Source of the DNA: a virus
Virus record (IMG/VR): IMGVR_UViG_3300027861_002706
Location: 53,602 to 117,601 of that record
Length of the DNA stretch: 64,000 nt
Reading direction: 5' to 3' (one strand)
Numbering within the stretch: position 1 is the stretch's first letter; each line of letters starts with the position of its first letter. The notes under the pieces are model-generated. The model saw nothing but the letters and a program-made list of their open reading frames with translations. It was not told where the DNA came from and did not search any database. Below are positions 7,994 through 27,737 of the stretch, piece after piece. The translations under genes were made by a program, and so were the position numbers.

Positions 7994-10900
7994 CTACCCT
8001 TCTTCAAATTGATCGAGTATATCCGGGGCTTCTCCTTGAGAAGCGATAAAGTCAGCCCAGAGGTATCGCGCCTGCTCCATTATGTTATCTATGCCATGAG
8101 GATTGCTACTTGCGACATCGATTGCACGGAGCCCGGCAGAGAACACTGTATTATTATATCTTAAAAGTTTTATCTTGGCCGGGAGGTATACTGGTATACT
8201 CCCATCAATACGGTGAGCGCCGGCAGAGAACACGTCTCCTTCATTTGCATCTATAACCGTTTGCTGAGATATAACTGGATTCAAGTACTCATCCATAACA
8301 CTACTTCCACCTCGAAGCATCAATCGCCCATACACAACATTCAACCATATAGCTCTTGCTCCAGCGGTGATTCCTGCTCCAGCGATAGAGCCTATCGCAG
8401 CGTTTCTAGCAGATATCGCTGCGGTGTATGCCGCCGTCTCAGCAGCAGTAGCAGTAGCAGGAAGAGCCCCAGCGGCTATCAGCCTTATCTGCTCTCGTGT
8501 TAACATTGCCTCAGCTCTGGCTCCCAGGTGGCCAAAAAGGCCTGCGCCGAGGCCTTGGCTAGAGGAGGTGCCTCCACCAAATATAGCTCTACCTGCACTT
8601 ATCAGTGGATCGCTAAGGCTATAAGGTGCATAGCCACTCTCTCCTGGCTGTAATGCCATTTTTTTAAGCGGTGCTCGAGCAACACCCTCTGCGAGGCGTC
8701 TGTTTGCTCTGTTTATACGTACATTTTGTCCGTATCTGTAGCCTCTTCTAAGAACGTTTCTGAATCCGGTTGTTGCCCAATTCCGCCAAACTGCTCGTTG
8801 TGCGACTCTTGCTCCAACAACGACTCCTGCTCCAGCGAGTCGAGCGCCGCTCGTAAGTATCGTTTTAAGTGTGAACCAGACACCTGATGTTATGCCACCG
8901 GTGAATATCGAGCCAAATAACGCTGCAACAGTTATTGTGTCCATTACGCCCATAAAGGTTTTACCGTTAGCAAAAGAATACATCCATCTCTCGGCCTGGC
9001 CTGCATTATACGTTCCCAAAAAGCTATTCACTCGGGTTAGACCTACTGGAACTACAGTAGTCGTCCATCCGCTAGTAGAACTGTAGTTTTGTATAACACG
9101 TTCAGCCATTATTTCTCCATGGATATTATTGACATTATCTACAATCCTAACTGAGTCATAAGGTTTAATATTTCTACCAATCATGATTAAATTACCACGA
9201 TACATCTTTGATAAACCTTGTGCTAATCTGAAGTTATTAACTTGTAGAGCTAGATTAGGAGTAGTCGCATTTATCTCTGTAAAAGTTTCAAGGATATCTT
9301 CTGGACCAGCATATAATCCTGCATAATTCATGCCCACCGAATTTTTCCTGGGCCATATCCCAAACTCTTGGTCAGAATCTATCTGAAAAACCCCTGCTGA
9401 CTTATTGATTCCACCTTCTTCTATGCCATAGTTAGTTGGCCCCCAATCACCCCACCCCGCTGTTTCATTAACAGTATTAATGGGTACTCTCAAGGAAACT
9501 GCACTCCACATATCGGACTGTGTCGCAACTACATTATTTGCTATTAGGTCATGATCAGAAGAGACTACATGGTGATCCCTAAATAGTTTATGAGTAAACG
9601 GTAGCATCTCGCTAGTATCGTCTTTGCTATTCATTATATCTTGCAGGACATCATTGTCTCTTTCTTCGCCATCTAATCCGATAGGGTTGAGTAGCTTGGT
9701 TGCCAGCTGAAGAGCTTGTTTGTATTCCATCAATGTTTTTACTATATAATCAACTGCAAGACTGTTGCCTGCTGCGGGATTCCTTGCAAAAGAAGTAGAG
9801 AGCTCTTCTCTCTTCGACATAAGATTTTTAAAGATCGAGATTTTCCTATCGGTACGAGAAGTATCCATAAATGTTGATGTCAGGAAGGGAACAATAGCTA
9901 TTTGTTCCGTAGAGTTGACTTGCCAACTAGCATCGAGGTTTACCTCGACGGCAGCTCCTTCCTCTTTGCTCGTTGACTTAAATAATCCAAAGTCCGACTC
10001 GTTGCTAATCAACAATGGCCAAAAATCTAATCTCTGCCCCGCGTGGTGGACTGCATTTCCGCTAATCGTAGTACTATTAACTTCGAGAGTGTTATTCAAT
10101 AAAGCACTAAGGCTAATGCTAGTATATAGCGGATTAGGCTTAAATGAATTTCCTCCAAAATTATATAAGGAGTTCCAGTTGGTTGTATTAAGTACATTCT
10201 TGCTGTTTAATCTGATCTTAGCTATAGCCTTAGAAGCTGTAGCTAGTTTGGTAAAGTCTGCTTCAGTTAATTTGCTCGTGTCTAAATTAAGGAATATAGC
10301 GAGCAAATTAGCATGCACGTCATCAGAAAGGTAAGGTTCATCAGAGATGGGCCTGAAGAGTGTATTCACCACTAGGTCTTCTAATTCCTTAAAGCCTCCA
10401 TCTGCTTGGGAGAATGGGGCGGTCGGATGTACAGTAACTTCTGCTCCTGCGTTATAGCTAGCTCCGTATAGCTGGTATGCGTTTGTGTGAATATCAGATT
10501 TTTCAACAGCGGCGATTTCACCAAGCTTAATTCTATTATATCTAGTTATTCTTTTACTTATCTTATCACTTATGTGATTAATCCGATGAGCAAGAATCCT
10601 ATATTTTCCTAGTTTTCTAAAATCATTCGCTTGGGTTTTTAGAGAAGTTTGAGCATTGTAACGGGCGACATATTCGCTCTCTTCTTTTGTGGCCTCTCTG
10701 TACTGATATGGACCACAGGGATCACCAACGAATAGCGTGGCGTCTCCTTCGTAAGGAACAACGGTGGCTATAAAATTAGGCATATATCTTACAACTTCTC
10801 TTATCCCATCTATCGCCGGAGCATTGGTAATAAGCCACTCGTTTGCTACCTCGGTACTAGTTATTTCAGCATAATTTCCTACACAGTTATACACATTTCT

Positions 10901-13900
10901 AGATAAGTCAAACCCTTGCCAACCAAAATAGTTAGATTCCATAAATGCATCGCCCCAGCTAGCATTGTCTCCTTCGATCTCAGATATGAAACCTACAGTA
11001 GTTTCTGAACCGAGTATCCTTTGTATATTACTATTCTCTTGTTCGTATGAGAATATGACATTTTCAGCGCTACCAGGTCCACCAGGTCTATATGGATTCA
11101 CCCGAATTTTTTTGCCTAAGTGATATGGACCAGACACAGGGCTGTCTGTTGGATCATTGTCGATACCAAGCAATATGTAATTTATTATACTGATAAAACC
11201 AACATGCTTATCGTAGCCTCCATACGCGAATTCTGGCCACCAATGTTTCATCATGTCCAAGAAGTCCTCTTCTATAAATCCTCCGAAATCAGTTTGTAGT
11301 TCAGACTGAAATCCCTGAGCAATAATTTCTACTATTTGTCCTGCTTTAACCTCTGCGATTGTTCCAGTAAATACTGTTTTTAGCGCGGCCAGATTATTCC
11401 CATATCCCATCTTGACTACTATATGAATACCTGGTCTAAGCATAAGCGTCTTAATAAATTTTTCGCCTGAGTCATCATCTACTAATTTAGGATCCGAATT
11501 ATTATAGAAAGAGGTGCTAGATAAAGTCCCACCAAAATTAGCTAGCTTCATTGTACATATATCATTATCATATATATGTGAAGAGATTGAGCACTCGAGT
11601 ATCTCCTTATAGCCATGATAGTCGTCTTTTTGGTAATCCCGTTTTCGATCTTCTTCAACAAAGTACAGTCTTGCAGTAGGAAATGACTTCAACAAAGATT
11701 CTGTTAAATCAGGCATATGGGATAATTGCTGCTCGCCCATCTTTGAATACTGATTTTCTCCATTAATGGGTACACTTATTCCGCTACCAGGTTGATAGTA
11801 TGTGGGAGTTTGAACATACTCCATTTTACTACCTTCATAGGCGTTCTTTTCTGGATTAAAGATTAGGCGGAGAGCCACTCGACCTGGATCGCTATTGTTA
11901 CCAGTCATAATAAACTCTATAACTGGATATTTATTTTTAACTGCTCCATAAAGCTGTTTTGCAAACTCAGCATGCGCTCTCTCATCAGTCCCTAGAATCA
12001 GCGATAATTCATTCACTACGTCCCCATTCTCGAGTATAACACTGGAACCCTCGGAGTTTAGTGATTCTTGATCAACTAGAGCCGCGCCAGCGGCCATTTC
12101 CGCTGGGTTTTTTATTGCGTTAAATAATTTCCCCAATGTCTCCTTACTGAAGGTATCTGTCTCCGGTCCATCACCAGTCTGTCCTGGCTCTTCATTGATA
12201 TTTTTTAGTATCGTTAGTCCGTTTAGAGGGAGAGTTATAACTCCTGCGCCTGTTTTATGTCGTGGAGCAATCCCGTAGCCTTCATTTCGTGCTTCATAGT
12301 TTTGATAATCACTGATCATCAACATCTTATCTCTATTTCTATGATAAAAGATGTCGGGGTCTATATAGCTACTAGCTCGCGCAGATACGGTACTGGCTAT
12401 ATCCTGTGTAGTCATCTTCATTAAATCAACAAATGGAATAGATGGGGTGATCCCATAGTCGCCACACTTTGGTGCGAATGCTTCCATTAAAGCATTAAAT
12501 ATAACTTCAGCTTTTTCGGGACTTTCTGCTTTGCTTATCTCGGAAGAAAACAATTCGCTATAAGTAGGTAGATACATATCTGAATATAAGTCTATCTCTT
12601 TAGTATTAAACTGCTCAACTTCCTCTTCTATCATTTCGATGTCAGACATATTTATTTCTGCCTTATTGGCGATACCATATATCTTTGAGCCTGCTTCATC
12701 TCTAAGGTAATTAAATTGCCATAGCCCTTTAAATTTTGCGACTAATTCTATCAATATGCTAAGAGAATTCTGCATGGACTCTCTGCTAGCGAATACGCGC
12801 CCTTGCTTTCCTAGAGTATATTTGTTATTTATTATACATTGAAAAATAGCATCCCATAGATCTTTGGGAATCATCTTGCCGCGCTTATGGAAAATATCTA
12901 ATATACTATTTATATCATTAAGGTCTTCAGGAAGCTTTACTGACCAGAGGGTATCTCCGGTGTCCGGAAATTCTGTGTCGAGATTGTCAAAGAGTACCCC
13001 TTCTCTTACTCCATAATATGAATGCCCTTTAGGCCCCGACTCTATATCAACATCATGCCTCTCCATAGGATTTTTGACATGTGTGACTGGTGATTCCTGG
13101 TCTTTTCCCAGGGAGAGTATTCCCGCAAGCCAATTCACCTGGAAAACTCCTTGTTGGTGGCTTGGACCTGCTTTACTTCCACCCCCCCTCTTATACGCAT
13201 TGTCTATCTCAAACCATCGACGAAACTCTTCTGAGTTCCCCTCCTGCTCTCTGAGTGGATCTCCTGTCTCGATCTCTGTCCATTTCAATCCAAATACTGA
13301 AGCATAATTCGATTCTTTGTCAGCGCGCAATGCTCCATGGACTAACCTAAGCAGACTTTTATATACTTCCTTATGGGTACTAAGACCAGAGTCTATCAAT
13401 ACTAATTCCTCTAGATCCCGATATATATCACCGGTAAGGAGTCGACCGGTTCTTTTCAGGGCGTACTGATAGATTATGCCCATAAAAATAGGCTGATAAT
13501 ATGTATCAGCTGCATTCGCTGACTCTGGGGCTAACACTGTACTGAATTTACCTAGGTCATCTGTTAGACCTAAAACGCGCATTAAGCTATCTAGCCTGTC
13601 CATATCATTTGCAGTTACCTTATCCCTGATTGAACTCGAAGACTCGTCCCCATTCTCACCTGGTCCAGTGTTGCGCTCCCACCATACTTTGTATAGCTTA
13701 TAGAAATATTCCCAGACTGCTTCAAGAGGTTTGGTAGATACTGCCCCTTTCTCAAGGACTAGTTTCTCCGTATCATGGCTTTGTGTATTTTCCACTAATG
13801 TGAGTATAAGCCGATACAGATCAGGAGAGTCTGGATCGGATTCTATTGTTACAGATTGCGGCGAGATTTTATTCACACCAAGAGAATTTATAAGCTGATT

Positions 13901-15436
13901 TTCTATCCATCCGAAAGAGTTAAATACTGTTTGAGAAGCTTCAGCAGATACTAGCTTCGCTTTCATCGCCATGAAGTCAGCAATAATTTTTTTATTTCTG
14001 ACTGCGAAGATAAGTTGGAACGAGTTTGAGTTTAAACCCATATACTGAATCATAGGAAATTTTGAGCCCATTAAAGGAATGTCAATTGATCTTGTATTAA
14101 ATGTACCAGAGATCTTTTCTAGAACCAATGGACTACCTTCGTAGCCATTGGTGTATCTCGGGTTAGTAGTATCAAAGTCTATGATTCCACCGAATATATC
14201 CCAATATGTTATTCTTAGATCATTGCTACCTATGGGAGTTATATTACCAGATTTACTTCGTTCTCCTGCTAAGGCTGCTATGGTTACATCTATCTCTTTT
14301 TTAATTCTATTGGACGCCTGGCTAACATATTCCATGCCCCAGTGACACTCGCTAGGATCGAGTGTAGGGCTGCCTTCTTTGTCCCGGTATAGAATAGTGC
14401 CAAAAGGGAACGCTGGAGAGCTCATTATCCCAAAACTAAATCGACCCAGTATGGCCCCTGGCATATCATGCATTGTCTGCATGCTTGCGCTTTTAAAACA
14501 GACCGGGACAGGAAATTTAGGACCACCATTGTCTTGTCCGCCTGAATCTAGGTCTTTGAGAAGATTTGTATTATTCTCAGTCGACTTATTATCATTAAGT
14601 ATATTCTTCATATGTTTTACTCCCTGAACAACTTCAGGGTGATTTTCAGTGAATAGGCCCAGGATATCATCGTAGGTATTATCGAGATCAAGAGCCTCGA
14701 GCATCCGATCAAATCTATTTTTCTCAGTATCGCCTTTACCTCCAATTACTTTTAATGCTGCTACGTCTCCGATCATATCGTATAAAGCAGGGTAGGCGTA
14801 CTGGGAGACAAAAGCCATGCATAAGGCAGAAGAATATATAGAGTTCATTGGCATAAACTTAAACATATTATATAGATTTATAAAGCTGGGATAATCTCTT
14901 TCTGTAGATGAGAACACCTCGAAATTGGGGAATATAATATCTATAGAGACCGTATGCTTTGACTTGCTATTTGCCATCATTCCCGATGACTTGGATCTTG
15001 CGACCGGCACAGGTGTATTTAATAAGTGCTCTTGTATATTGATAGAGCTTGGAATGATATAAGGAGAAGAAGACATCCCAGAAGACTCAATTATTTTATA
15101 GAATCCTATTTGAGTAATATCTTCATTCTGGAAACGCAGGTCATCAAAAATTTGTCGCTTAGTGGCTAGTATGCCTTTAAGTATCTTCTGTCCTGTTTCT
15201 GGCAAAGGCGTGGGCGCGCTTGGATTCTCTAACTGCCAGTTAAAAAGTTTCGACTTGTATTTTGCTTTCTGATCCTCTGGTATCGTCTTACTGATATCTA
15301 TATCTTTTAGCGCGCCGAATAATATTTCATTATGCTTATCGAGATCTATAATACTTGTACTCATGAATTCGATTGGACTTCTACCGACCGATTCTAATAC
15401 TGTTTCGAGGGTTAGTATATCGCTAGTGGTAGGCAT
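7994..15436 (-). CDS. Giant baseplate hub protein (gpD/gp27-like C-terminal half; tube-initiator-like N-terminal domains), about 2480 aa
   Basis: LRPGIHIVVKMGYGNNL...VFTGTIAEV and YRGNLIMIGRNIKPYDSVRIVD are late-control-D/hub-type motifs. Start moved from 15502 to the ATG at 15436 (MPTTSD), which lies 1 nt after the upstream TAA. Confidence 0.75.
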   Translation of the reverse strand: MPTTSDILTLETVLESVGRSPIEFMSTSIIDLDKHNEILFGALKDIDISKTIPEDQKAKYKSKLFNWQLENPSAPTPLPETGQKILKGILATKRQIFDDLRFQNEDITQIGFYKIIESSGMSSSPYIIPSSINIQEHLLNTPVPVARSKSSGMMANSKSKHTVSIDIIFPNFEVFSSTERDYPSFINLYNMFKFMPMNSIYSSALCMAFVSQYAYPALYDMIGDVAALKVIGGKGDTEKNRFDRMLEALDLDNTYDDILGLFTENHPEVVQGVKHMKNILNDNKSTENNTNLLKDLDSGGQDNGGPKFPVPVCFKSASMQTMHDMPGAILGRFSFGIMSSPAFPFGTILYRDKEGSPTLDPSECHWGMEYVSQASNRIKKEIDVTIAALAGERSKSGNITPIGSNDLRITYWDIFGGIIDFDTTNPRYTNGYEGSPLVLEKISGTFNTRSIDIPLMGSKFPMIQYMGLNSNSFQLIFAVRNKKIIADFMAMKAKLVSAEASQTVFNSFGWIENQLINSLGVNKISPQSVTIESDPDSPDLYRLILTLVENTQSHDTEKLVLEKGAVSTKPLEAVWEYFYKLYKVWWERNTGPGENGDESSSSIRDKVTANDMDRLDSLMRVLGLTDDLGKFSTVLAPESANAADTYYQPIFMGIIYQYALKRTGRLLTGDIYRDLEELVLIDSGLSTHKEVYKSLLRLVHGALRADKESNYASVFGLKWTEIETGDPLREQEGNSEEFRRWFEIDNAYKRGGGSKAGPSHQQGVFQVNWLAGILSLGKDQESPVTHVKNPMERHDVDIESGPKGHSYYGVREGVLFDNLDTEFPDTGDTLWSVKLPEDLNDINSILDIFHKRGKMIPKDLWDAIFQCIINNKYTLGKQGRVFASRESMQNSLSILIELVAKFKGLWQFNYLRDEAGSKIYGIANKAEINMSDIEMIEEEVEQFNTKEIDLYSDMYLPTYSELFSSEISKAESPEKAEVIFNALMEAFAPKCGDYGITPSIPFVDLMKMTTQDIASTVSARASSYIDPDIFYHRNRDKMLMISDYQNYEARNEGYGIAPRHKTGAGVITLPLNGLTILKNINEEPGQTGDGPETDTFSKETLGKLFNAIKNPAEMAAGAALVDQESLNSEGSSVILENGDVVNELSLILGTDERAHAEFAKQLYGAVKNKYPVIEFIMTGNNSDPGRVALRLIFNPEKNAYEGSKMEYVQTPTYYQPGSGISVPINGENQYSKMGEQQLSHMPDLTESLLKSFPTARLYFVEEDRKRDYQKDDYHGYKEILECSISSHIYDNDICTMKLANFGGTLSSTSFYNNSDPKLVDDDSGEKFIKTLMLRPGIHIVVKMGYGNNLAALKTVFTGTIAEVKAGQIVEIIAQGFQSELQTDFGGFIEEDFLDMMKHWWPEFAYGGYDKHVGFISIINYILLGIDNDPTDSPVSGPYHLGKKIRVNPYRPGGPGSAENVIFSYEQENSNIQRILGSETTVGFISEIEGDNASWGDAFMESNYFGWQGFDLSRNVYNCVGNYAEITSTEVANEWLITNAPAIDGIREVVRYMPNFIATVVPYEGDATLFVGDPCGPYQYREATKEESEYVARYNAQTSLKTQANDFRKLGKYRILAHRINHISDKISKRITRYNRIKLGEIAAVEKSDIHTNAYQLYGASYNAGAEVTVHPTAPFSQADGGFKELEDLVVNTLFRPISDEPYLSDDVHANLLAIFLNLDTSKLTEADFTKLATASKAIAKIRLNSKNVLNTTNWNSLYNFGGNSFKPNPLYTSISLSALLNNTLEVNSTTISGNAVHHAGQRLDFWPLLISNESDFGLFKSTSKEEGAAVEVNLDASWQVNSTEQIAIVPFLTSTFMDTSRTDRKISIFKNLMSKREELSTSFARNPAAGNSLAVDYIVKTLMEYKQALQLATKLLNPIGLDGEERDNDVLQDIMNSKDDTSEMLPFTHKLFRDHHVVSSDHDLIANNVVATQSDMWSAVSLRVPINTVNETAGWGDWGPTNYGIEEGGINKSAGVFQIDSDQEFGIWPRKNSVGMNYAGLYAGPEDILETFTEINATTPNLALQVNNFRLAQGLSKMYRGNLIMIGRNIKPYDSVRIVDNVNNIHGEIMAERVIQNYSSTSGWTTTVVPVGLTRVNSFLGTYNAGQAERWMYSFANGKTFMGVMDTITVAALFGSIFTGGITSGVWFTLKTILTSGARLAGAGVVVGARVAQRAVWRNWATTGFRNVLRRGYRYGQNVRINRANRRLAEGVARAPLKKMALQPGESGYAPYSLSDPLISAGRAIFGGGTSSSQGLGAGLFGHLGARAEAMLTREQIRLIAAGALPATATAAETAAYTAAISARNAAIGSIAGAGITAGARAIWLNVVYGRLMLRGGSSVMDEYLNPVISQQTVIDANEGDVFSAGAHRIDGSIPVYLPAKIKLLRYNNTVFSAGLRAIDVASSNPHGIDNIMEQARYLWADFIASQGEAPDILDQFEEG

Positions 15437-15437
15437 A

Positions 15438-18400
15438 TTAGAATACCGAGTCCATTCTATCTCTGAGGTCTGTGGCGATTTCGCTTCGAGCCATTGTACC
15501 ATTTAACTCAGATCTAAATGAACCCTGAATCTTTGGAACGTACCCATTATGAAGCGCATATTGGTTCGTCATGCCTCTAAAATCTGCTGGCGCATTCATC
15601 TTACCCGATACATTGAGTCTGCTTCTTTTCCCTTCGGATCTAGTGATACGAGCTATTCTGGTATTAGGCATTGCATTCGGATTAAATGTCGGGTCATTTG
15701 GAGTTGACATCACTGGAACTGGAGGTAATGTTCCCGAAGAGTTATACATAGATACCGGTACATTGCCGGGTGAGAATCTATCTAACGTAGATCGGACCGC
15801 CTCTATCCCTGCGAGGCCTCCTATTACCGCAGCAGCAGGCTTAAAGAACTTTGTTCTACTTATATTCTGGAAGAATTCGCCGCTCAACATACCAGACCTA
15901 GACGCGTTCGAGCTGACGCTTGCTCCACCTACCCTAGCATTGTCTGGGCCGTAGTCGGCTATATTCACATTATTCTGCCGCATCCTAGTCATTGTTTCAT
16001 GAAACTCAGCAGATAGAACTTCGTTGAGGCCTGCGCCACTTGTATCCATCGCTGCTAATCCTTGGAAGTCGGCCATAGTCAATGAAGCAATACCAGACGC
16101 GCCAAAGACATTATCGTTAACTAGTCCGCCTATTACTGAACTAAGGTTTCTGACTACACCCTCGAATGGCATTCCTAGTCCGGTTCCCCTGGTCCCTACT
16201 TGTAACTCTTGGGCCATCACTTCTATAAACATCATTCGTTTTGCAAGATTGTGTGCAAGTTGTCTCATCTGTTCGTCATTACCGGAGCCACTCAGCTTTT
16301 GTAATATACTTAATGTTTGTGGCTCCATTTCATGGAGCTTTCGGAACAAACCATCTGTCCCGGGTTCTATGATCTCTGCTGCCCTTAACAAGTTATTAGA
16401 TACTTGATCGATAAGATCCCCAGCTTTAGTCCCACTCCTGCCTTCTATCAGGTCATACATGAACCCCATGCTGCCGTGGTCCATATCAGATCTGGCCTGA
16501 GAGGAACCCGCCTTCAATGCGTTAAGGATAAGCTCTGCTGGTTCCTGCCCAGAAACACCGTGTGCAGCCTTTTTGAGGAACATATACTTTATCAAGTTCC
16601 GCGCATCTGTATAATGATATGTTGAAGCAGTACGAGTAGGCCCACCTGCCCCGGCCACGCTCTCTGTAAAGATGCCGCTAGCCTTACCTAAAAATTTACC
16701 CAGGCGATCTATTCCCGCATCGTCTAACCTGGCTTCAAGGTTAGTCCTTAACAGACTTTGACCCTCACCGCTAGCCTGCAAGTCTATTAACTGTGTAACC
16801 ATATAGTCGACATAAGATCTAGCTCTGAAGTGCCCCTCGACAATAGGAGTAGAATGCCCATGGCCAGCTATTTTTATCAATGACTCGAAGGTATGCTGTC
16901 TTACAGTTGCCTCTGACGTCATATCTGCGGTCTGAGATATAAGCTTATTGACATCTCCATAATTAAAACTAGTCTGCCCAGCTAGGCCTAAGCTCCTCGC
17001 CATTTCATTATCTGGACTACCTTTAAGATTACTAAGTATGCCATCCATCATTTCTATTTGTCCTTGATGGATACCCCTCATAGTGGAATCGTCCATACTA
17101 GCTAGTCTAAATAGATTGATAGCATCTTTGTCAAGGTCGCCTTCAGCTGCAAACTCAATCAGCATATTATTAAGATATGCTGTATGCTTGAACTCAAAAT
17201 CATCGACTATATCTGCAGAAGCGAAAGCTGTATCCTTCAGCAATACAGTCTGAAGCGCAAACATTTGGCGTCCGCCTGCAGCAGGTTCTCTTACTCCAGT
17301 AGTATAGTGCTTCCCAGCCCATGCCTTTTCGACTAGCTTGTCTAGTGCACCATCATCCATTCCTGGCGTAAAGTGCATGGACCTGAATGCTTTTTCGGTC
17401 ATACCAACCTGGAATTTGCCAAGACTGCTATGAGTCTGTAGCCGCATTCTTGCGCCAGATTGTATCCCTGCAGCACCTATCTCTGATGAATAGAATAAGC
17501 CTTGTTTGGCCATTGTATTAGCGGCCATTACTTGATAAAGCTTATCTAGTTTTTTTCCTATATCGGATGTTTCAGCAAGCCGGTTATCTGCTGAGCTATC
17601 CCTGAGTGTCTCCACGCTTTCTAATATATCCAGATACATTGATTGAGCTTCTACCTTGGCGCTTTGTCCAGAGCCTAGCTTGGCAGCCGCATCATCGGCT
17701 AGCTTCTCAAATTGCCTCCCTCCTTGTGAGACTCTTACAAAGCCTTGCTCTTCAATGAATTGCATAGTTTTTGCGGAGGGGACAAGCATTGGCCCATGTT
17801 CACCTTGGATCAAGAATGCTTGATCTGAGATTTTGGCCACACCACCCTCACTGGAAACTAGTCCGAGCAGGCTTTTGCCAATATCTTCAAGGTTCACTTT
17901 ACCAGAGGCACCACGTTTTCTCAGTTGATTGATACCATACTCGGATTCAATACCTCCAGCTGCAAGTTTTGGCCTAAATCGCTTAGGCCCTATCTCTCCA
18001 CTCCCGTAAGCCTCCCCCTCTCCTTTAAATTTAAGCCGAGATACATCTCCAGTTTTGAGATCTCCATCAGCGCCTATCTTTCTCAGAGCCTCAAATCCGA
18101 AGCTCGTCTCTTTGAAGTGCCTCATCTGCTGATAGATAAGACTCATCTCATGATCTTTGGCGAATATTGCTGGATTCGCTTCGCTCAGAGCGTTAAAGAT
18201 TAGTCCCTTTTTCTCACTAATCTGCTTCTGATGGAATCGCTGATTAGAATAAGGCTGGTTAGTGTCGGGATTTATATATTTTCCATCACGTTTTTTGAGA
18301 AGCTCGCCAGTTTTGGGATCTCTATCTGGATGCATTCTTTGCCCGTGAGCAAAGTCAACAGACTCTGCAAGCATCATTAGATCTCTTTGTTTTATACTGA

Positions 18401-21095
18401 GTGCATTCCTGCCGAAAGAACCCATAGGTTCTTCCGCTCTTGTTCCTACCTCCGCTGCGAGAGATGCCATCATATATTGCTTACCTACATCGAGATTTTT
18501 AGTACCGATAACCCCCATTCTTGCGAGTGTCTGATTAAGCGAGCCTGCTTGTTCCCTTAATGCAGCCTCGGCTTGTTCTTGCGTATGAGCTGGTAACTGT
18601 TTTAATATCTCGTGGACATCAACTTCATGGAATGTCTTTTCTATTAGTTCCTTGAATAGAAGAGAATCTTTTCCTCCGGCGGCCTCATGTAGGTGCTTCA
18701 TGAACTGCTCGTTGGTTACACGTTCTAACTTGCTCCCCAGGCCGTGGATCTGTGTAGTTATCCCACTACCTATTATCTCTTGGTTAGAAGTTCCGCCCAT
18801 TACGTTTACTAATCGCTGAGTAGCAACTTCGCTCCCAGTCTCTGTGATAATATGTGCAAGGTTCCTGAGCAGTGTTTCGTTAAAGCCGAAGTCAAATCCC
18901 TCTGCAACTCCCTTCATTGCGTCTGAACTCCACCGGCCAGAACCGGTTTTCGTCCTATCCATATCCTTAATTCCCTTAACGGAAATTCCTAGATCTCCCA
19001 TTACAAAATGTTGTCCCCCAGATGAATCTATTCCTGTGAGCTGTCCTACGATAGCTTGCACTGCGGTAGGTCCAACAACCTGAGATGTACTAACCCTCTG
19101 GCTACCTACCATATGTCCTGCACTAACACTAGTACGTGCGGGTGCCCTTGTAGTCCTATGCGGCCCTTCCGCCATGATTAGTTCCAGCTGCCCAGTTCCA
19201 GGAATTAATCTATATCCGGTGACATATGTATGATCCGGATCCATTCCTCGCTGCTTAACAATATTCATCATATCGTTAGCATGCCTGAGGTCTTTCACCA
19301 TCACATCTTCAGATCGAGCCACCCCTTGTCCAATTACTGCTTTATCTATACCAGCAGGTTGTACGTCGAACCCTACCGCGGAAATAGATCTTCTAACTTT
19401 ACGGTCTGCTGTAACCTGCAAGTCATATTCAAGAGCTTTTAGCTGGATCGGACTACCAAAATTTACCTTTTGATCGCCTGCGACTTTGCTGGTCATCGAC
19501 TGTTGATGCTGTCCAATTGCATCGACTAAATCATTACGCAGGAATCCTAAAAATTCTTGAGTCCCATCCTCTAAAATCTGGAGCTCTTTGAGATTGATTT
19601 TATGGGATACGGTACGTCTAGACATACCAGTCATAGGATCAAGATCTAGCTGCTTCACTAGCTCGCTAGACATCACTACACCAGAGTCGCCAAAAATTGC
19701 TTTGTTTAATACGGGGTCTGCAAACTGTAGTCCTAACGCCCTTATTCCAAAAGCTACGTCGTCAGAGATGCTCGCACCCCCACGTGCACTTCTGATTTCG
19801 TGCTTTAATAATTCGTTAGTCTCACTACTGAAACCCATTATCTCTGCTACAGCTGTAGGCAATTCTTTAATATCTCTTAGGACAATCGGGGCCCTGGACA
19901 GATGAAATTGCCTGCCTTTTTCGAACGTTTCCTGTCCGGGTAATACAGTAAGGTTTTTAACATCCTCAATAGTTCCTTTGATATATACTCTCTGCTTACC
20001 CCTACTACCATCTGCGAGGTTGGGCCTGAATGCAGATTCTGCGCTTTGTGGAGTCCATGCAAAATTGAAATTCTTGAGTCTTTCACTAAGAGGATCAATA
20101 CCTAGCGCAGATGATCCTTCGGGGACTCCACGTTTAGTAATCCTCTCTATATGATCTGTTACGGCTTGTTGCGCAGTATTCAGCTCTCTGCGCATTTCTC
20201 CCGAATTAAATCTTTCTGCATGGGTATGAGGATCATATCCAGTAATCAGTATCTGCCTTAGTCTGTCTTCCTCTAGCATGAGTTTGAACAGGTCGGAATC
20301 CTGACTCACTTCTAGCATTATTTGGTTTCTGGCCCCGAGAAGATGCCTACCTAGCTTAGGCTGGCCAGAGTACGACATGGGGTCAATCATTCCTGCGCTA
20401 TTTTTAGTACGCATCTCGAACGGGAGTCTATTGTCGAATAAGTCCTCTGTAGCCCCAATCACTTGATTTATAGTCTTATTTAATTTGCTAAAATCAGACT
20501 GATCCTTCATTACTGTATTGATTTCTCGATATACTGTTTCAGAAAAACTTGTAGGTTTTGTCAGACGATCGTTTCCTCCGATAGTTCCAACACCAGCAGG
20601 AACGCTATATGTACTACCTCCTTTGAACATATACTCATTCGCGCTCTGGCTAACTCTCCCAGGAAAATCCGGATTCATATCATCTGCGAATAGAGGTATG
20701 TGCACAGCCTTTTTACCTTGGCCATGAGGAGTAAACACAAGTGAGCCACCCCTGTGAACTAGCGTGCCTTCATTGCTACCTGCTATACCTGTTATTAACT
20801 GGCTAAGTCCCTCGCTCTGGGAGCCAGTCTTATATACATCTGGTAAATTATCTATACTACTAATTGTTTTCCCAGGTAGACTCAACTTGACCTTGGAGAA
20901 CAGATCTTCTTGAGTGGTGCCTGTCGAGGCTCCTATGGCCAGTGCTGCTGCTAGGTTTGCTTTAGCGGTGTGGCTAATTCCACCACGCAGAGGAGGGGTT
21001 TCACCGAAATGAATATCGACTACATCTCTTTGAAATACCTTTATTGCATCTTGTCCCTCACTTGAGGCGGATCCAGGTGTGGGGGTGCTGGCCAT
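15438..21095 (-). CDS. Giant virion protein at the tape-measure locus; candidate virion RNA polymerase (DPBB, D-x-D-x-D motif), 1885 aa
   Basis: GVREP (about 17284-17298) is followed by GDLDKD (17124-17141), resembling the beta-prime NRAP...NADFDGD arrangement. The C-terminal AAVIGGLAGIEAV segment is hydrophobic. The CDS is certain; the RNAP call is an inference. Confidence 0.55.
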   Translation of the reverse strand: MASTPTPGSASSEGQDAIKVFQRDVVDIHFGETPPLRGGISHTAKANLAAALAIGASTGTTQEDLFSKVKLSLPGKTISSIDNLPDVYKTGSQSEGLSQLITGIAGSNEGTLVHRGGSLVFTPHGQGKKAVHIPLFADDMNPDFPGRVSQSANEYMFKGGSTYSVPAGVGTIGGNDRLTKPTSFSETVYREINTVMKDQSDFSKLNKTINQVIGATEDLFDNRLPFEMRTKNSAGMIDPMSYSGQPKLGRHLLGARNQIMLEVSQDSDLFKLMLEEDRLRQILITGYDPHTHAERFNSGEMRRELNTAQQAVTDHIERITKRGVPEGSSALGIDPLSERLKNFNFAWTPQSAESAFRPNLADGSRGKQRVYIKGTIEDVKNLTVLPGQETFEKGRQFHLSRAPIVLRDIKELPTAVAEIMGFSSETNELLKHEIRSARGGASISDDVAFGIRALGLQFADPVLNKAIFGDSGVVMSSELVKQLDLDPMTGMSRRTVSHKINLKELQILEDGTQEFLGFLRNDLVDAIGQHQQSMTSKVAGDQKVNFGSPIQLKALEYDLQVTADRKVRRSISAVGFDVQPAGIDKAVIGQGVARSEDVMVKDLRHANDMMNIVKQRGMDPDHTYVTGYRLIPGTGQLELIMAEGPHRTTRAPARTSVSAGHMVGSQRVSTSQVVGPTAVQAIVGQLTGIDSSGGQHFVMGDLGISVKGIKDMDRTKTGSGRWSSDAMKGVAEGFDFGFNETLLRNLAHIITETGSEVATQRLVNVMGGTSNQEIIGSGITTQIHGLGSKLERVTNEQFMKHLHEAAGGKDSLLFKELIEKTFHEVDVHEILKQLPAHTQEQAEAALREQAGSLNQTLARMGVIGTKNLDVGKQYMMASLAAEVGTRAEEPMGSFGRNALSIKQRDLMMLAESVDFAHGQRMHPDRDPKTGELLKKRDGKYINPDTNQPYSNQRFHQKQISEKKGLIFNALSEANPAIFAKDHEMSLIYQQMRHFKETSFGFEALRKIGADGDLKTGDVSRLKFKGEGEAYGSGEIGPKRFRPKLAAGGIESEYGINQLRKRGASGKVNLEDIGKSLLGLVSSEGGVAKISDQAFLIQGEHGPMLVPSAKTMQFIEEQGFVRVSQGGRQFEKLADDAAAKLGSGQSAKVEAQSMYLDILESVETLRDSSADNRLAETSDIGKKLDKLYQVMAANTMAKQGLFYSSEIGAAGIQSGARMRLQTHSSLGKFQVGMTEKAFRSMHFTPGMDDGALDKLVEKAWAGKHYTTGVREPAAGGRQMFALQTVLLKDTAFASADIVDDFEFKHTAYLNNMLIEFAAEGDLDKDAINLFRLASMDDSTMRGIHQGQIEMMDGILSNLKGSPDNEMARSLGLAGQTSFNYGDVNKLISQTADMTSEATVRQHTFESLIKIAGHGHSTPIVEGHFRARSYVDYMVTQLIDLQASGEGQSLLRTNLEARLDDAGIDRLGKFLGKASGIFTESVAGAGGPTRTASTYHYTDARNLIKYMFLKKAAHGVSGQEPAELILNALKAGSSQARSDMDHGSMGFMYDLIEGRSGTKAGDLIDQVSNNLLRAAEIIEPGTDGLFRKLHEMEPQTLSILQKLSGSGNDEQMRQLAHNLAKRMMFIEVMAQELQVGTRGTGLGMPFEGVVRNLSSVIGGLVNDNVFGASGIASLTMADFQGLAAMDTSGAGLNEVLSAEFHETMTRMRQNNVNIADYGPDNARVGGASVSSNASRSGMLSGEFFQNISRTKFFKPAAAVIGGLAGIEAVRSTLDRFSPGNVPVSMYNSSGTLPPVPVMSTPNDPTFNPNAMPNTRIARITRSEGKRSRLNVSGKMNAPADFRGMTNQYALHNGYVPKIQGSFRSELNGTMARSEIATDLRDRMDSVF
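19778..19822. repeat. 45-bp direct repeat, copy 1 (inside the 1885-aa gene)
   Basis: ccccacgtgcacttctgatttcgtgctttaataattcgttagtct is identical to 27738-27782; flanking bases differ. Confidence 0.95.
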
Positions 21096-21096
21096 C

Positions 21097-24000
21097 TTAG
21101 CTCCTTAGTATTTCTGATGCTATTCTAAAGTAATCGTCAAGTTCTTTTCTCGAAGTCATATCATAGTTGACTATATTTTCTAGCCCGGATCCGAGATCCT
21201 CGTTTATGTCGTAATCAGTTATACCTGATTGCATTAACTCTGCTTCCAACTGCTGTCTAGCTGCAGCATCTAGTCCAGATCTGGTATAAAAGTGATAGAT
21301 ATCTAGATCTGGTTCTGGGAATTCTGTTCTTAACCTATTTGCAGTTCTTGCAAACACCCCCGACCTGTGAGCATCATTAGAGACTGACCCCCAAACAGAA
21401 TCCATTGTTCTGATTCGAACAGCATTCATTGGAACATCTGGATGGAACCCAGCCCAATCTGCTCCTGGCATTCCATGTGCCATCATGCTTTGTGCAGCTC
21501 TGGCATCGGGGTGTCTTCTTATATTGCTATAGTCAAATGAAGTATCTCCTTGCTTTGCCCAGGCTGCCTGATATACCGGTTTTAAGTACTCAGGAACATA
21601 CTGCAATACTTCTTTACGTTTAGACGTAGTGAAGTCGAGGGACCTCATGAACAGCTGCTTTTCCCTTGTTGGCAAAGCGATTAGGGAGTCTCGCACAAAC
21701 TGCTTAGCCCCTAAAGAATAGTCCAGTGATGCTACTGTCCGTTTTTTAAGATCTATAAAGTGCGCTGCTACTTTATGTAGTCCTTCTACCTTCGCCTTTT
21801 TCTCTAGACGCCGTAGCTTTATGTATTCTAGTGAATCAAAATATTCATCCATTCTTCTTCTATCGGTGACATACTCGGGGACGTAGCCTCCAGCTAGCTG
21901 ACCAGTATTCATCGCCCGTATAGACGAACTACCCCCAAAGTGAATCGCTCCGGCAGTGGACATCACTATACGAGAGATGGGATTCGCACCCATGAGAACT
22001 CCGGTAGTGAACCCACCGATAGTTGCAGTAAACGGATCTGTTGCTTTGAGCTGCTCTGCCATTGGTCTTAGCATAGTAGTATATGGCTTAGTCCAATCAT
22101 ACTCATCTGTATCGTATACTTCTCTTTTAATATATGCGTCAAGCTCGTCTCTAACTGGCAGCATCTTGTTCGACAACATTGGACCGAGTATAGGTATTGT
22201 TATACCCAATCTAGCTACTATGTCATGCGAGAACACTTCCCATGCAGCACCAACTGCTTGCTCCGGAATAGTGTAATAGGCGTCTATGCCCTCTTGGTTT
22301 TCTTCATTGGTTTTTTGCTCGACTAGTCCGGAGAATTGTTCTCCTATCGAAGTAAATTTTCTAGAATATGTAGCGTACCTGTTTAACTTCTGCTTAACGC
22401 CTTCTTTTGTTTTTACTAACTTATCTGTCCAATATTCATCTACTGTTCCAGACTTAAGCATAGAGTCTACAAGTATACTGTAATGCTTATAGGATTCAGA
22501 ATGGGGAGCAACATCCGCTAACACCATGAATCTATCTACAGCGTCATATATCCCAGGAGATCCACTATGCAGTCTAAAGGCAATTTCTTTAGCTGTGCCA
22601 GGCAACCTTAGTTCGCCATGGGGTATCTTTGAGTATGGGTCACCCGTACTGAAATCTATGTGGTAGTTTGTGTCTCCCGGGAAAACCCCCATTGCTGTAT
22701 TCCCAGTAAAGCTGGATCTGGATCCAGGTAACCAGGATGGCATCGTATTAGGAATAGTATTTGTAGCTTGTCGCTGTGCTTGAAGATAATCAGACATGAC
22801 AAATCTACGAAGAAGCTCAGTGTGCCCCATCAGGCCACCAACGCTTTCATCATAGAAAGCTCTAGTCGTAGAATTCATAAACCCAGCATCTGCTAGCTGA
22901 GGCGCAGATGGATTAGTGGACTTAAATGGCATGTCCCATAGTCCGAATTTATAGATACCAGAAAGCTCACTCATATGAGCGATGCTAGTAGACAAAGTCG
23001 CGCTCTTTTTAGCAGGAGATAATTCCGCCCTTGCGGGATACGGATCCATTCCCATCTCTACTACTGACTCACCTGGAGTTTGGTATGCTCTTAACCCAGT
23101 TGCGTTACCTCCCGGTACGCCCATGCTTCCTATGGTCCTATTCGATAATTTTTCTATAGAAAACGCAGTAGGGTAGGGTCTATCAAATCTATGTTTCTCT
23201 GCTAGATATTCATCTCCGGTAGGATCGAACATAGCTCCGACTAGAGGCATGTGCTCTAGAAGAGATCCAACGGCAGGAATATCAGTCAGTGGGTTTAATA
23301 TATTTCCCGCAAGCTCTGGTACTCTAAACAGATTGCTTGGGGTCGGTAGAAAACTTACGCTTCTAAAATATTCTGCCTGGGAGCCATATAGTGTATCGGT
23401 ATACTTGTACTCAGATCGCATCCTGGCAAACATGCCAGGAGCAAAATAACTTATTTTTCCACCACTAAAAGGTTGCTTACCAAGCATCCAATATCTACCG
23501 GACCTCATAGGAACCGGTTGCTCACCAGATAATATATCTCTAGTTTCCTTAGGGGTTTCTGTTATGCCTGGGAACGGAAGTTCTCCGATAGCTGCAGATA
23601 TTCCTCCGGCTATGAGTAGGCCACTTTTGTTTGGTAGCATTTTTAGCGCGATTGCAAACGGTGCTATTGTCCGTATAAAATCTGAGGCTGAACTTTCCAC
23701 AGATCCTGGCATCAAGTCTTCCATATATCTCGCTGCAGGAGATACACCAGTAAACTCTCTCAAGAACTGTGCAGAGATTTTAGCTACACTATAGGCATCT
23801 AACAGTAAGTTAGAGGCCTTGTACCCACCAGTAGGAATACCAGATAAATAATCTGCATATTTTACCCCCTCTAGAGCTAAAGCTCCTCCCGCTGCCATAC
23901 CAAATATTTTTGCCGTGTTTCCTACAAAGCCAAACATTCCTGGAGTAGCTCTGAAGCCAAGACCTGTAGTCGCTCCAATCAAGTCATTGAGCCTAGTAGT

Positions 24001-25719
24001 CATAAAGTTAGCTACATCTGCTAGCCTACTAGAGATGTCGGACTTGAATGCGAATGAATCTAGGGGGCGAGTTTGTCTTCTCTCGAATCCACCAACTGGT
24101 CCGGCAGATACATTCTCGATGGCAGTAGCAGGGCGTACGCCGTAATCAGATTGGCTAACACCCTTTACTGGCTTGACTACTTTCTTGAGTATTCCACTTC
24201 TTTGTTCTCTCTGCACATACTCAATAGAAGTTTCATCTCCTAATGCAGCAAGTACATCTCGCTTAGTCTCCTCGAAGTATCCACGATCCCTGGGGTCTGG
24301 CCTAGATTGCCTCTGTACTCTCTGCCTAGATTGATCAATTAAGTCTAACTTAGATCCATCAACCTCAGAAGTTCCAGTCCTTCTTGCTACTTCTTTCGCC
24401 GTCTCATCTATTCGAGTAGTTTCTTTTACTACAGGTGTTCCCTTAGTCCTCCTTTTAACAAGATCGGTTGTAGCTCTTTTAAGGAAAGACTCTTGTGTCG
24501 CATACTTCCTTCCTATTCCTATGTCGTCTAATAGCGCATTAAACCATTTTAGTACAGGATTCCTAGATGTAGATTCTATTTCCTCAGAGGACATTCGAGT
24601 CTGGCTTTTAAGTTGCCCCCTGCTGGCAAGTACTGCTTCACCTATCTTGTTCTTTCCGCTTGCTCTATATCCGGAATCAACAAATTCAAGCTTAGCAGCA
24701 GTACTACCGTCTCCTCTGGGGGCTATTTTGAATAAGTCTTCACCTATTACGAGCCTGTGTGCAGCAGGATCAGATACCTCAGGCGCACGAACTATTGCGG
24801 AAGCTTCACCTTTACCGAAGAGGTGCCTAATGGGCCCAGCAAAAATATCACTAACACGCAGATTCGCAAACGGTAACTGAATTTCATCTGTCAGTCTTTT
24901 TAGTATACCACCGACATGTTGGCCACTTAATATTCTTGTGTCTATGACCTTTTTTGTAGCTGTATCTAAGAATATTCTTTCATCTATTCTTTGATCACCC
25001 GCAAGCAATCCCCATCTTTTCGCATCCACTAAGCCATCTATCTGATCTTTACCAAACAGATCAACAATTTGTTTATGCTGGATACTGTCTGTAGACATAG
25101 CGATAAGTTTATCGACGGTAAGATCTTCTACGCCTTCAGCTGAATTAAACTGTCGGGTATACCTTTCTCTAATCGACTCACGCATTCTAGTGACAATATC
25201 TTGGGCGTCCTGAGATATTGATCTTGTTCCTTCAACACCGCTAAAGAACGTGCCATGAATGTCTGCCTGATGCAATGTATCAAGATTTCTCTTCGTATCT
25301 TCTAGTATTTGAAGATGTGATATTAGAGGTGTACCTTCGGCTGTCATCCTGAGATTGGCAGCCGCTGCTTCATCAATCTTACCGGACAATCCTCCGGCGG
25401 TAGCAGCAATATTTAGATAAGTTTTAGATGCCGCCCGCTGGCCCCTATTAAGCATACTGGTGAGCTTACCAGCCACCTCCATACCTAGGTTGCCTAACGG
25501 TCTTTTAGATATTAAATTTACTGCTGCACCAATTAATGCTATCTTTGATATATTGCTAGAAAGCGCATAGTTCTCTCTTAGTATACGCTCTTCGTTAAAG
25601 GCGGGCTCGTCATCTCTAGATGATGCAATTCTATCTCTAAGCCGCTCAGGATCTTGGATAAGATCCCTATGGAAACTATAATCTCTAGGTAGGTTGGACT
25701 TATTTCTTTCTGATGGCAT
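21097..25719 (-). CDS. Tape-measure-like protein (1540 aa)
   Basis: Follows two tail chaperone genes. Mostly helical with several Gly/Ala hydrophobic segments (IFGMAAGGALALEGV, GLLIAGGISAAIG). Contains PMRSGRYWMLGKQPFSGGKISYF and DFSTGDPYSKIPHGELRLPG motifs. Confidence 0.7.
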   Translation of the reverse strand: MPSERNKSNLPRDYSFHRDLIQDPERLRDRIASSRDDEPAFNEERILRENYALSSNISKIALIGAAVNLISKRPLGNLGMEVAGKLTSMLNRGQRAASKTYLNIAATAGGLSGKIDEAAAANLRMTAEGTPLISHLQILEDTKRNLDTLHQADIHGTFFSGVEGTRSISQDAQDIVTRMRESIRERYTRQFNSAEGVEDLTVDKLIAMSTDSIQHKQIVDLFGKDQIDGLVDAKRWGLLAGDQRIDERIFLDTATKKVIDTRILSGQHVGGILKRLTDEIQLPFANLRVSDIFAGPIRHLFGKGEASAIVRAPEVSDPAAHRLVIGEDLFKIAPRGDGSTAAKLEFVDSGYRASGKNKIGEAVLASRGQLKSQTRMSSEEIESTSRNPVLKWFNALLDDIGIGRKYATQESFLKRATTDLVKRRTKGTPVVKETTRIDETAKEVARRTGTSEVDGSKLDLIDQSRQRVQRQSRPDPRDRGYFEETKRDVLAALGDETSIEYVQREQRSGILKKVVKPVKGVSQSDYGVRPATAIENVSAGPVGGFERRQTRPLDSFAFKSDISSRLADVANFMTTRLNDLIGATTGLGFRATPGMFGFVGNTAKIFGMAAGGALALEGVKYADYLSGIPTGGYKASNLLLDAYSVAKISAQFLREFTGVSPAARYMEDLMPGSVESSASDFIRTIAPFAIALKMLPNKSGLLIAGGISAAIGELPFPGITETPKETRDILSGEQPVPMRSGRYWMLGKQPFSGGKISYFAPGMFARMRSEYKYTDTLYGSQAEYFRSVSFLPTPSNLFRVPELAGNILNPLTDIPAVGSLLEHMPLVGAMFDPTGDEYLAEKHRFDRPYPTAFSIEKLSNRTIGSMGVPGGNATGLRAYQTPGESVVEMGMDPYPARAELSPAKKSATLSTSIAHMSELSGIYKFGLWDMPFKSTNPSAPQLADAGFMNSTTRAFYDESVGGLMGHTELLRRFVMSDYLQAQRQATNTIPNTMPSWLPGSRSSFTGNTAMGVFPGDTNYHIDFSTGDPYSKIPHGELRLPGTAKEIAFRLHSGSPGIYDAVDRFMVLADVAPHSESYKHYSILVDSMLKSGTVDEYWTDKLVKTKEGVKQKLNRYATYSRKFTSIGEQFSGLVEQKTNEENQEGIDAYYTIPEQAVGAAWEVFSHDIVARLGITIPILGPMLSNKMLPVRDELDAYIKREVYDTDEYDWTKPYTTMLRPMAEQLKATDPFTATIGGFTTGVLMGANPISRIVMSTAGAIHFGGSSSIRAMNTGQLAGGYVPEYVTDRRRMDEYFDSLEYIKLRRLEKKAKVEGLHKVAAHFIDLKKRTVASLDYSLGAKQFVRDSLIALPTREKQLFMRSLDFTTSKRKEVLQYVPEYLKPVYQAAWAKQGDTSFDYSNIRRHPDARAAQSMMAHGMPGADWAGFHPDVPMNAVRIRTMDSVWGSVSNDAHRSGVFARTANRLRTEFPEPDLDIYHFYTRSGLDAAARQQLEAELMQSGITDYDINEDLGSGLENIVNYDMTSRKELDDYFRIASEILRS

Positions 25720-25722
25720 TGT

Positions 25723-26397: not shown

Positions 26398-26400
26398 ATC

Positions 26401-26880
26401 CTAAACCTTAATTGGAGTAGGTGCACTTTGGTATCCTGAAATCGCAAGAATGGAATCATGAAGCGTAGTAGCTACACCTGAGGCCTTGCTCCTTAATTCA
26501 TCTAGTCCTAGCGGAGGATGAACAGTGCCCTGGGCAGCAATAGCTTCTTCACTCATCATGTTGAGTGTAGCTCTAACTCCTTCAGGATTCGCAGAATCTG
26601 CAGAAGCTTCAACTTCTTTAGCCATGGCCTCTGCCTGTGTTTGGACCAAGTTACGGTACTCTCGGCGGTTTAAGCTTCTAATGATGAACCATTCATCAGC
26701 ACAATTAACAACATTGACATTGCTGAATTGTTTTTTGGCGGCTTGGATGATCGAGATAAACTCTTCATCCCATTCAAGCTCCTTAGCTTGCTGCCACGTA
26801 ATCTCTAACCCTGGAATTTTGTCTTCCATATTTTTGAGCTTGGGTTCAGCCTTACTCTTTTTCTCTACTACAGTTTCCAA
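26401..26880 (-). CDS. Tail assembly chaperone (159 aa)
   Basis: FIIRSLNRREY...SGVATTLHDSILAISGY pattern, AAGGAG Shine-Dalgarno before a TTG start, and position after the tube genes. Confidence 0.65.
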   Translation of the reverse strand: METVVEKKSKAEPKLKNMEDKIPGLEITWQQAKELEWDEEFISIIQAAKKQFSNVNVVNCADEWFIIRSLNRREYRNLVQTQAEAMAKEVEASADSANPEGVRATLNMMSEEAIAAQGTVHPPLGLDELRSKASGVATTLHDSILAISGYQSAPTPIKV

Positions 26881-26894
26881 TGTCTCTCCTTAAT

Positions 26895-27695: not shown

Positions 27696-27737
27696 TTAAT
27701 AGAATCCTTTAAGCATAATTGTTCCCGCCGTATCTAG

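Follow-up and report, generated by a model that had tools for sequence, protein, structure and literature searches.

We analysed a stretch of 64,000 nucleotides (hereafter the window) that forms the right-hand 64 kb of the virus record IMGVR_UViG_3300027861_002706, a 117.6-kb genome estimated to be 91% complete, from an uncultured marine contractile-tailed phage (myovirus). Besides TerL, portal and major capsid genes, the window carries those of a tail sheath, of two tube-like proteins and of a gp6-like baseplate wedge; with its sheath and wedge genes the phage is contractile-tailed. Between the cluster of tube and small genes on one side and the baseplate genes on the other lie three abutting giant genes on the minus strand, encoding proteins of 1540, 1885 and 2502 amino acids (aa). 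This block of three is kept in every related locus that we recovered, where the orthologues of the middle protein are 1865-2105 aa long. The middle protein, P0001, is the subject of this report: an earlier note on the window had proposed that it is an injected, highly diverged single-chain RNA polymerase (RNAP) of the two-barrel type, encoded at the tape-measure locus.

The position of the 1885-aa gene is given by its neighbours. In tblastn searches the 1540-aa protein matches Bacillus phage 0305phi8-36, where the virion protein gp145 is its homologue, and the other large myoviruses Edson, WH1, KLEB27-3, ME3 and MTATph1. The matches of the 2502-aa protein are phrog_20474, a "putative baseplate protein" and virion proteins from jumbo phages of Bacillus; its gene is positionally equivalent to that of the gp147 hub of 0305phi8-36. 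In 0305phi8-36 the order is sheath, tube, tube paralogue, gp142, two tail chaperonins, gp145, gp146 and gp147, where gp146 is a "hypothetical tape measure protein" of 2537 aa, gp147 is a gp27-like hub with wall-degrading domains, and both gp145 and gp146 were detected in virions by mass spectrometry (PMC2147016). The order found here is sheath, tube-like genes, small genes, gp145 homologue, 1885-aa gene, hub-like gene and baseplate. Since the 1885-aa gene sits between the gp145 homologue and the hub-like gene, as gp146 does, it is the positional equivalent of a tape measure, and it lies where tape measures are found, between the tube and chaperone genes and the baseplate hub. By position, then, the protein is the marine myovirus counterpart of gp146, and the placement of the locus in the earlier note is borne out by this synteny together with the sheath and wedge genes. 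In layout, the C-terminal module of the protein corresponds to the C-terminus of gp146, to which it aligns weakly (P 0.058). This fits the published observation that alignment of tape measures in the 0305phi8-36 lineage is confined to about their last 60 residues. Searches of the protein against Pfam and PHROGs matched no tape-measure family.

We also noted some features of the gene borders and of gp146 itself. The 1540-aa gene ends 1 nt ahead of the ATG of the 1885-aa gene, a spacing that suggests translational coupling of the two. As listed, the 2502-aa open reading frame (ORF) begins inside the 1885-aa gene, with 65 nt (15438-15502) shared between the start of the one and the end of the other; the overlap is only ~11 nt in relatives, and therefore the true start of the 2502-aa gene is probably further downstream. 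In 0305phi8-36, gp146 (ORF146, 24002-31615) holds the DnaQ-type, ExoI-like string YLDIETTGLSG, and Pfam finds nothing in gp146; it may be that other nucleic-acid enzymes reside in proteins of the tape-measure slot within this phage group.

The 1885-aa protein belongs to a tiny, isolated, metagenomic family. A word-indexed search returned 8 homologues, and when 1.84 billion representatives were searched exhaustively with a HMMER profile, 11 matches were returned, all of them full-length orthologues or fragments; tblastn of the protein against 50,697 phage records found nothing. Family alignments were made with 8 and 14 sequences at 31-51% identity, and in these the conservation peaks outside the C-terminal tail fall at residues 1081-1121, ~1211, 1261-1335, 1401-1440 and 1481-1510.

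All the motif strings quoted in the earlier note are present in ORF 15438-21095. The string SGARMRLQTHSSLGKFQVGMTEKAF occupies residues 1214-1238; TTGVREP occupies residues 1265-1271 at 17283-17303, one base from the 17284-17304 first given; and EGDLDKDAINL is present with DLDKD (residues 1320-1324) exactly at 17124-17138, as reported. DLDKD is the sole DxDxD in the protein. About 0.4 such motifs are expected from composition in a protein of 1885 aa, so the presence of DLDKD alone means little. The motif falls, however, within a block that, the C-terminal tail aside, ranks among the most conserved, and DxDxD is absent from both neighbouring giants and from the tape measure protein of 0305phi8-36. 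The claim that three Asp are kept while Gly is replaced by Lys was upheld by a conservation check, in which DLDKD proved invariant in 13-14 homologues: D1320, D1322, K1323 and D1324 are all invariant there, as are G1319, R1269, P1271, G1275 and Q1277. In the 8-sequence alignment R1218, L1219, Q1220, V1230, G1231 and T1233 are invariant too.

Table 1. Features of the 1885-aa gene and its surroundings (positions in the window; residues are those of the 1885-aa protein).
Feature	Position	Strand	Basis or remark
P0001, giant in the tape-measure slot, 1885 aa	15438..21095	minus	ORF
Upstream giant, 1540 aa, homologue of the 0305phi8-36 gp145 virion protein	21097..25719	minus	tblastn
Downstream giant, 2502 aa, hub position	7994..15502	minus	virion-protein matches, synteny
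IFGDSGVVMSSELVKQ, residues 467-482, proposed beta-like strand	19650..19697	minus	conserved
Beta-rich domain, residues 1064-1122, with invariant GPM..PSAK (1101-1109)	17730..17906	minus
Helical hairpin, residues 1129-1197	17505..17711	minus	best-predicted part of both models
Beta-prime-like candidate catalytic barrel (DPBB-A) region, residues 1184-1333	17097..17546	minus	hhalign
RMRLQT...FQVGMT, residues 1216-1233	17397..17450	minus	aligned to beta-prime SGRSVIT...QCGLP (hhalign)
REPAAGGRQ, residues 1269-1277	17265..17291	minus	aligned to beta-prime NRAPTLHRL
GDLDKD, residues 1319-1324, candidate Mg-binding loop	17124..17141	minus	aligned to beta-prime ADFDGD (D460/462/464)
Conserved block H..TP..E....RSY.D.M, residues 1401-1440	16776..16895	minus	conservation peak, predicted helical
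Conserved block TYxYTDARNxxKYMxLKK, residues 1481-1513	16557..16655	minus	conservation peak
C-terminal module, residues 1731-1885: hydrophobic helix FFKPAAAVIGGLAGIEAV, P-rich linker, conserved tail	15441..15905	minus	most conserved part of family
Tail sheath gene	29289-30845
Baseplate wedge gene (gp6-like)	5227-6366

The principal evidence that this region is related to RNA polymerases comes from a comparison with a diverse profile of the beta-prime barrel, built from 79 sequences of jumbo phages, giant viruses and E. coli, with the beta-prime segment of phage AR9 left out on account of an in-frame stop at its intron. Using hhalign, residues 1184-1333 were aligned to E. coli beta-prime 321-473 with a score of 31.9-32.2 (P ~5e-4) over 132 columns. 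Along the alignment the family strings SKQGLF, GxRxRLQT, FEVGxT, REPAAGGRQ and EGDLDKDAINLF stand opposite GKQGRF, SGRSVIT, HQCGLP, NRAPTLHRL and NADFDGDQMAVH of E. coli beta-prime, so that five motifs are in register: KQG with KQGR, RxRLQT with RSVIT, EVGxT with QCGLP, REP with NRAP, and GDLDKD with ADFDGD.

Controls were run against the same profile, with a null set of about 100 windows and shuffles whose top score was 24. Scores were 12-18 for family windows lying outside the region and 20-24 for flanking ones that reach into it; 30 column shuffles gave at most 19.6, reversed profiles (in which only the palindromic DxDxD is kept) ~20.5, 35 windows from the two neighbouring giant families a mean of 14.0 (standard deviation 2.1, maximum 16.9), and the tape measure protein of 0305phi8-36 no more than 18.4. 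Two verified RNAPs of Thermus phage P23-45 served as positive controls, gp64 scoring 34.0 (P 1.2e-4) and gp96 50.8 (P 1.9e-7). The profile similarity of the 1885-aa family is thus modest yet clearly over background and about that of the verified, diverged gp64, which we regard as moderate rather than overwhelming evidence, and it is likely that region 1184-1333 is truly derived from beta-prime.

These scores bear directly on one alternative, namely that the protein is an ordinary fast-evolving tape measure in which the motif resemblance and the weak structural matches described below arose by chance or convergence, with the sequence term of Foldseek echoing the motifs. We consider this improbable. 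The score of 32 lies ~8 standard deviations over the 35 null windows and above all 30 shuffles, the aligned columns extend well beyond DxDxD, and two structure libraries independently rank RNAPs first. Moreover, tape measures rarely keep invariant charged motifs, and that of 0305phi8-36, which has no DxDxD, scores at the null level.

Two AlphaFold2 models were built, both from the shallow 14-sequence alignment: model 1 covers residues 860-1600 and model 2 residues 1040-1345. Only the beta-rich domain and the helical hairpin (Table 1) reach values of 65-85 in the predicted local distance difference test (pLDDT). In model 2, strands 1263-1269, 1278-1285 and 1306-1308, the DLDKD loop and strand 1326-1329 follow one another at pLDDT 35-65, an order that, at this low confidence, would correspond to the pattern of barrel A. 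The best 50 Foldseek matches of model 2 in the PDB were all RNA polymerase chains, with E-values of 0.013-0.16 and TM-scores of 0.1-0.2, and included the non-virion RNAPs of AR9 and PhiKZ, cyanobacterial gamma, plastid rpoC1, bacterial beta-prime and Pol I. Against the viral structure library BFVD, a phage RNAP subunit ranked first (E 9.6e-3) and about ten RNAPs were among the best 50. VIA-align placed hairpin 1129-1197 on the beta-prime clamp helices 262-340 with a root-mean-square deviation of ~17 A. The matches of model 1 in Foldseek and VIA-align were mostly ribosome-biogenesis noise and helical hairpins, and a wide VIA-align search with model 2 likewise returned mostly helical hairpins. 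Individually the fold-search matches are weak, and the Foldseek score partly reuses the sequence signal; they are consistent with a barrel but do not amount to proof. The fold comparison proposed in the earlier note gave a divided outcome, in which the top PDB and BFVD matches are indeed RNAPs, with weak E-values, while the models themselves reach mean pLDDT values of only 49-54 and contain no confident double-psi barrel. Separately, the second-best BFVD match, A0A8S5SD80_1 (E 0.019, 400 columns), comes from an uncultured siphovirus, where it is labelled a "minor tail protein" of 1423 aa; it may be a further tail protein that carries a module of this kind.

The same searches speak to a different kind of double-psi barrel. 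Lytic transglycosylases include double-psi barrels with conserved Asp, and tape measures commonly contain peptidoglycan hydrolase domains. Together with the tail lumen slot of the 1885-aa protein, this could favour a cell-wall-degrading barrel of the MltA/3D, RlpA or expansin type, a kind frequently found inside the tape measure or hub proteins of tails, in which the Asp would serve glycan cleavage. We regard this as very unlikely, since Pfam gives no match to DPBB_1, 3D or RlpA even at E 10, no such enzyme is among the Foldseek and VIA-align matches, where RNAPs fill the list, and the DxDxD spacing with its flanking REP, KQG and RxRLQT is RNAP-specific. In addition, the downstream hub-like gene is the more likely holder of a peptidoglycan-degrading role.

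Based on these results, we propose that the 1885-aa protein is a virion protein of the tape-measure slot with an embedded, highly diverged polymerase module of the two-barrel type, which would be ejected via the tail to transcribe the first-entering DNA. We put this forward tentatively, as a reading with somewhat less than an even chance of being right. The core, at about residues 1020-1520, would consist of a clamp-like beta domain and a helical hairpin followed by a beta-prime-type double-psi barrel that keeps the Arg of NRxP (R1269) and the invariant metal loop D1320-x-D1322-K-D1324. By analogy with P23-45 gp96, the protein would be assembled in the tail lumen, anchored by its conserved C-terminal module, and expelled ahead of the DNA on sheath contraction. 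The hydrophobic C-terminal helix may help it to cross or hold the membrane, and the polymerase module would then transcribe the first-entering genes without the host enzyme. What the data show are the motifs with their invariance, the slot with its synteny, and a profile similarity to the beta-prime barrel well over the controls; from these we infer the barrel fold, a second barrel, catalysis, packaging and ejection.

Several results weigh against the polymerase proposal. The mean pLDDT is 48.7 for model 1 and 53.9 for model 2, the DxDKD loop lies below 50, and neither model shows a confident double-psi barrel. Pfam and PHROGs searches with the whole protein and with the core of five family members, taken to E 10, found no polymerase or peptidoglycan-hydrolase family, and sequence searches of the PDB, its gp96 entries included, with the protein and with the family profile found nothing. 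The same was true of hhalign comparisons with the single gp96 and gp64 sequences and with a narrow proteobacterial beta-prime/beta profile, so that the signal comes from the diverse viral beta-prime profile only; the single gp146 sequence also gave nothing. The look-alikes of the protein in ESM Atlas, a protein-language-model resource, are tape measures and not polymerases, at 0.81-0.84, which is below the threshold for a lead. In the GDLDKD loop, the Gly of canonical enzymes is replaced by Lys and their NA by EG. Blocks 1401-1440 and 1481-1513, a region for which no diverse profile was built, gave no profile match to bacterial beta-prime; neither a bridge helix nor a trigger loop was found, and a bridge-helix role for block 1401-1440 would be a guess. 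A crude k-mer search for dispersed, phage-specific promoter repeats found only intragenic tandem repeats.

A two-barrel RNAP needs a second barrel with basic residues. We prepared two diverse profiles of the beta barrel, from 50 and 43 sequences, one of them limited to the C-terminal half and the other spanning the full barrel and its flap. Neither gave a significant match to the 1885-aa family or to the families of both neighbouring giants, and the profile search did not find the conserved beta-type lysine pair in the 1885-aa protein or its neighbours, which also counts against the polymerase proposal. However, the same profiles miss the verified gp96 and gp64, so the missing second barrel is weak evidence and the test is uninformative. 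Barrel B is poorly conserved among single-chain RNAPs (PMC10770324). The unassigned lysines K1109 and K1197 are invariant in the family. A strand proposed in the earlier note to resemble FEDSILVSERV of the beta subunit, IFGDSGVVMSSELVKQ (IFGDSG...), is not supported: it does not align to the diverse beta profile, and comes into register only with a narrow proteobacterial one, at P 0.1. In favour of the polymerase proposal, searches of the 91%-complete genome with PF00623 and PF05183 found no other RNAP, and no other plausible DxD[GIK]D motif was seen there.

These results leave room for a protein that has the barrel without the enzyme, that is, a tape-measure or ejection protein with an exapted, beta-prime-derived barrel, no second barrel and no transcription. 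Such a barrel might bind DNA or metal during ejection, carry out short primer-like synthesis or another nucleotidyl transfer, or act as a structural plug. The profile controls indicate that the beta-prime-like similarity is real, and at the same time the beta-type barrel, the bridge helix and the trigger loop all went undetected; the module is central in a protein whose position, C-terminus and embedding look-alikes are tape-measure-like; and the related 0305phi8-36 has its RNAP encoded by a gene of its own, orf99 (PMC2147016). On the other hand, the Asp of the triad, the Arg of NRxP and KQG are strictly invariant at 31-51% identity, which points to polymerase-type catalysis, and the second-barrel test is powerless, as its failure on the verified gp96 and gp64 shows. 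No protein is known to us in which RNAP barrel A, with its triad intact, is used in isolation, and this too speaks against exaptation. On balance we hold the exapted barrel to be unlikely, if less so than an ordinary tape measure. The view of the protein as a diverged two-barrel RNAP therefore survives in part, through its beta-prime-like barrel similarity, its slot and its invariant Asp; the beta-type strand, the second barrel and a confident barrel model did not materialise.

We also found several repeats and unusual genes elsewhere in the genome. An exact 45-bp direct repeat, whose identity was confirmed, lies at 19778-19822 and 27738-27782; the first copy is within the 1885-aa gene (at about residues 425-439) and the second at the 3' end of the tube-like gene 27765-28553. 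The product of this gene and that of 28618-29289, directly downstream of the sheath gene, are paralogous proteins of 223 and 262 aa that match phrog_9206 ("major head protein"); judged by their position, they are more likely tail tube proteins, like the tube and tube paralogue of 0305phi8-36. Adjoining the packaging genes, 55692-60182 encodes a 1496-aa protein with a PHROG match to a Cas4/RecB-like nuclease (residues 1250-1369) and a weak match to polynucleotide kinase, and within its gene a 13-14-base word is repeated (genome 112453-113490, that is, window 58852-59889). The 13-14-base word TCGGTAACCACGCT occurs five times within a gene for a 1125-aa protein (33598-34930, in ORF 32490-35867), which suggests a repeated protein domain. 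Outside the window, a dense tandem array with a period of ~75 bp lies at genome 26290-26830, within a minus-strand ORF of 2025 aa (22567-28644).

To our knowledge, virion-delivered RNAPs of the cellular, two-barrel type occur only in crAss-like phages and in P23-45-like Thermus phages, and fusion of such an enzyme to a tape measure only in P23-45. It is conceivable, though we lean slightly towards doubt, that the 1885-aa family represents a third independent lineage of such enzymes, in marine contractile-tailed phages, nearer to the clamp-plus-barrel of beta-prime than to gp96 or the crAss enzyme gp66, with a DxDKD loop and with a second barrel that is unrecognisably diverged or replaced. If so, threading a polymerase through the tail would have evolved repeatedly, and its use in widespread marine myoviruses would mark tail injection as a recurrent solution and explain how such phages could begin transcription without the host enzyme. 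It would also mean that a minimal beta-prime-like core works in a new context, offering a very small, diverged core for studying the minimal needs of this ancient enzyme class. Genes labelled only "tape measure" or "hypothetical" may hide enzymes.

Among known systems, the best structural and profile matches of the 1885-aa protein are the N-terminal beta-prime subunits of AR9 (gp270) and of the PhiKZ non-virion RNAP, and bacterial beta-prime at about residues 260-490, rather than enzymes of the YonO/QDE-1 type. In these subunits the clamp helices, KQGR, RSVIT, QCGLP, NRxP and DxDGD are collinear with residues 1129-1333 here, although the beta-prime Pfam family PF00623 does not match the protein. 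The AR9, PhiKZ and bacterial enzymes are multisubunit with a separate beta, whereas no beta homologue was found in the 1885-aa protein or in the adjoining giants. Phage 0305phi8-36 shares the gene position and, in gp146, the C-terminal layout of hydrophobic helix, linker and short conserved tail, but gp146 has neither DxDxD nor a beta-prime-like signal. That phage encodes a separate YonO/QDE-1-like RNAP (orf99; PMC2147016), whereas none was found in the present genome.

The two precedents invoked in the earlier note, P23-45 gp96 (PMC10770324) and the enzyme of crAss-like phage phi14:2 (bioRxiv 10.1101/2020.03.07.982082), both hold. The phi14:2 enzyme, gp66, is a giant, virion-delivered single-chain enzyme with a residue other than Gly at loop position 4 (DFDxD), encoded like the 1885-aa protein among several giant cargo genes. 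It belongs to podovirus-like crAss phages and is a capsid cargo and not a tail-slot protein, whereas the present phage is a sheath-bearing myovirus. No PHROG or HMM relation links the gp66 family to the 1885-aa protein. P23-45 gp64, a single-chain two-barrel RNAP of 616 aa, resembles the 1885-aa protein in its beta-prime profile score (34.0 against 32) and in a second barrel that profiles do not detect, but it is a free enzyme that is not in virions and has no direct sequence similarity to the protein described here.

The closest parallel is gp96 of P23-45, a virion RNAP fused to the tail tape measure protein whose activity and structure are proven (PMC10770324). Like the 1885-aa protein, it is a giant in the tape-measure slot with a two-barrel-type loop (DFDGD in gp96, DLDKD here), and in each case a single DxDxD within a tail or virion protein first drew attention; the expected shared logic is a polymerase ejected with or ahead of the DNA. 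The two proteins have no detectable sequence relation: hhalign gives Prob 0.1 and leaves the catalytic region unaligned. In gp96 the polymerase is the N-terminal part (1-1124) of 5002 residues in a siphovirus, while the present phage, which is contractile-tailed, has the module in the middle of the protein (about 1020-1520 of 1885); the 1885-aa protein contains a clamp-helix-like hairpin, but gp96 has a flat shape without a clamp; and loop position 4 is Gly in gp96 and Lys here. The 1885-aa protein is probably a new, sequence-unrelated analogue of the tape-measure-fused virion RNAP of P23-45, one that by this analogy would work like gp96 while standing outside the gp96 family in its sequence, phage morphology, central module, clamp-helix-like element and DxDKD loop.

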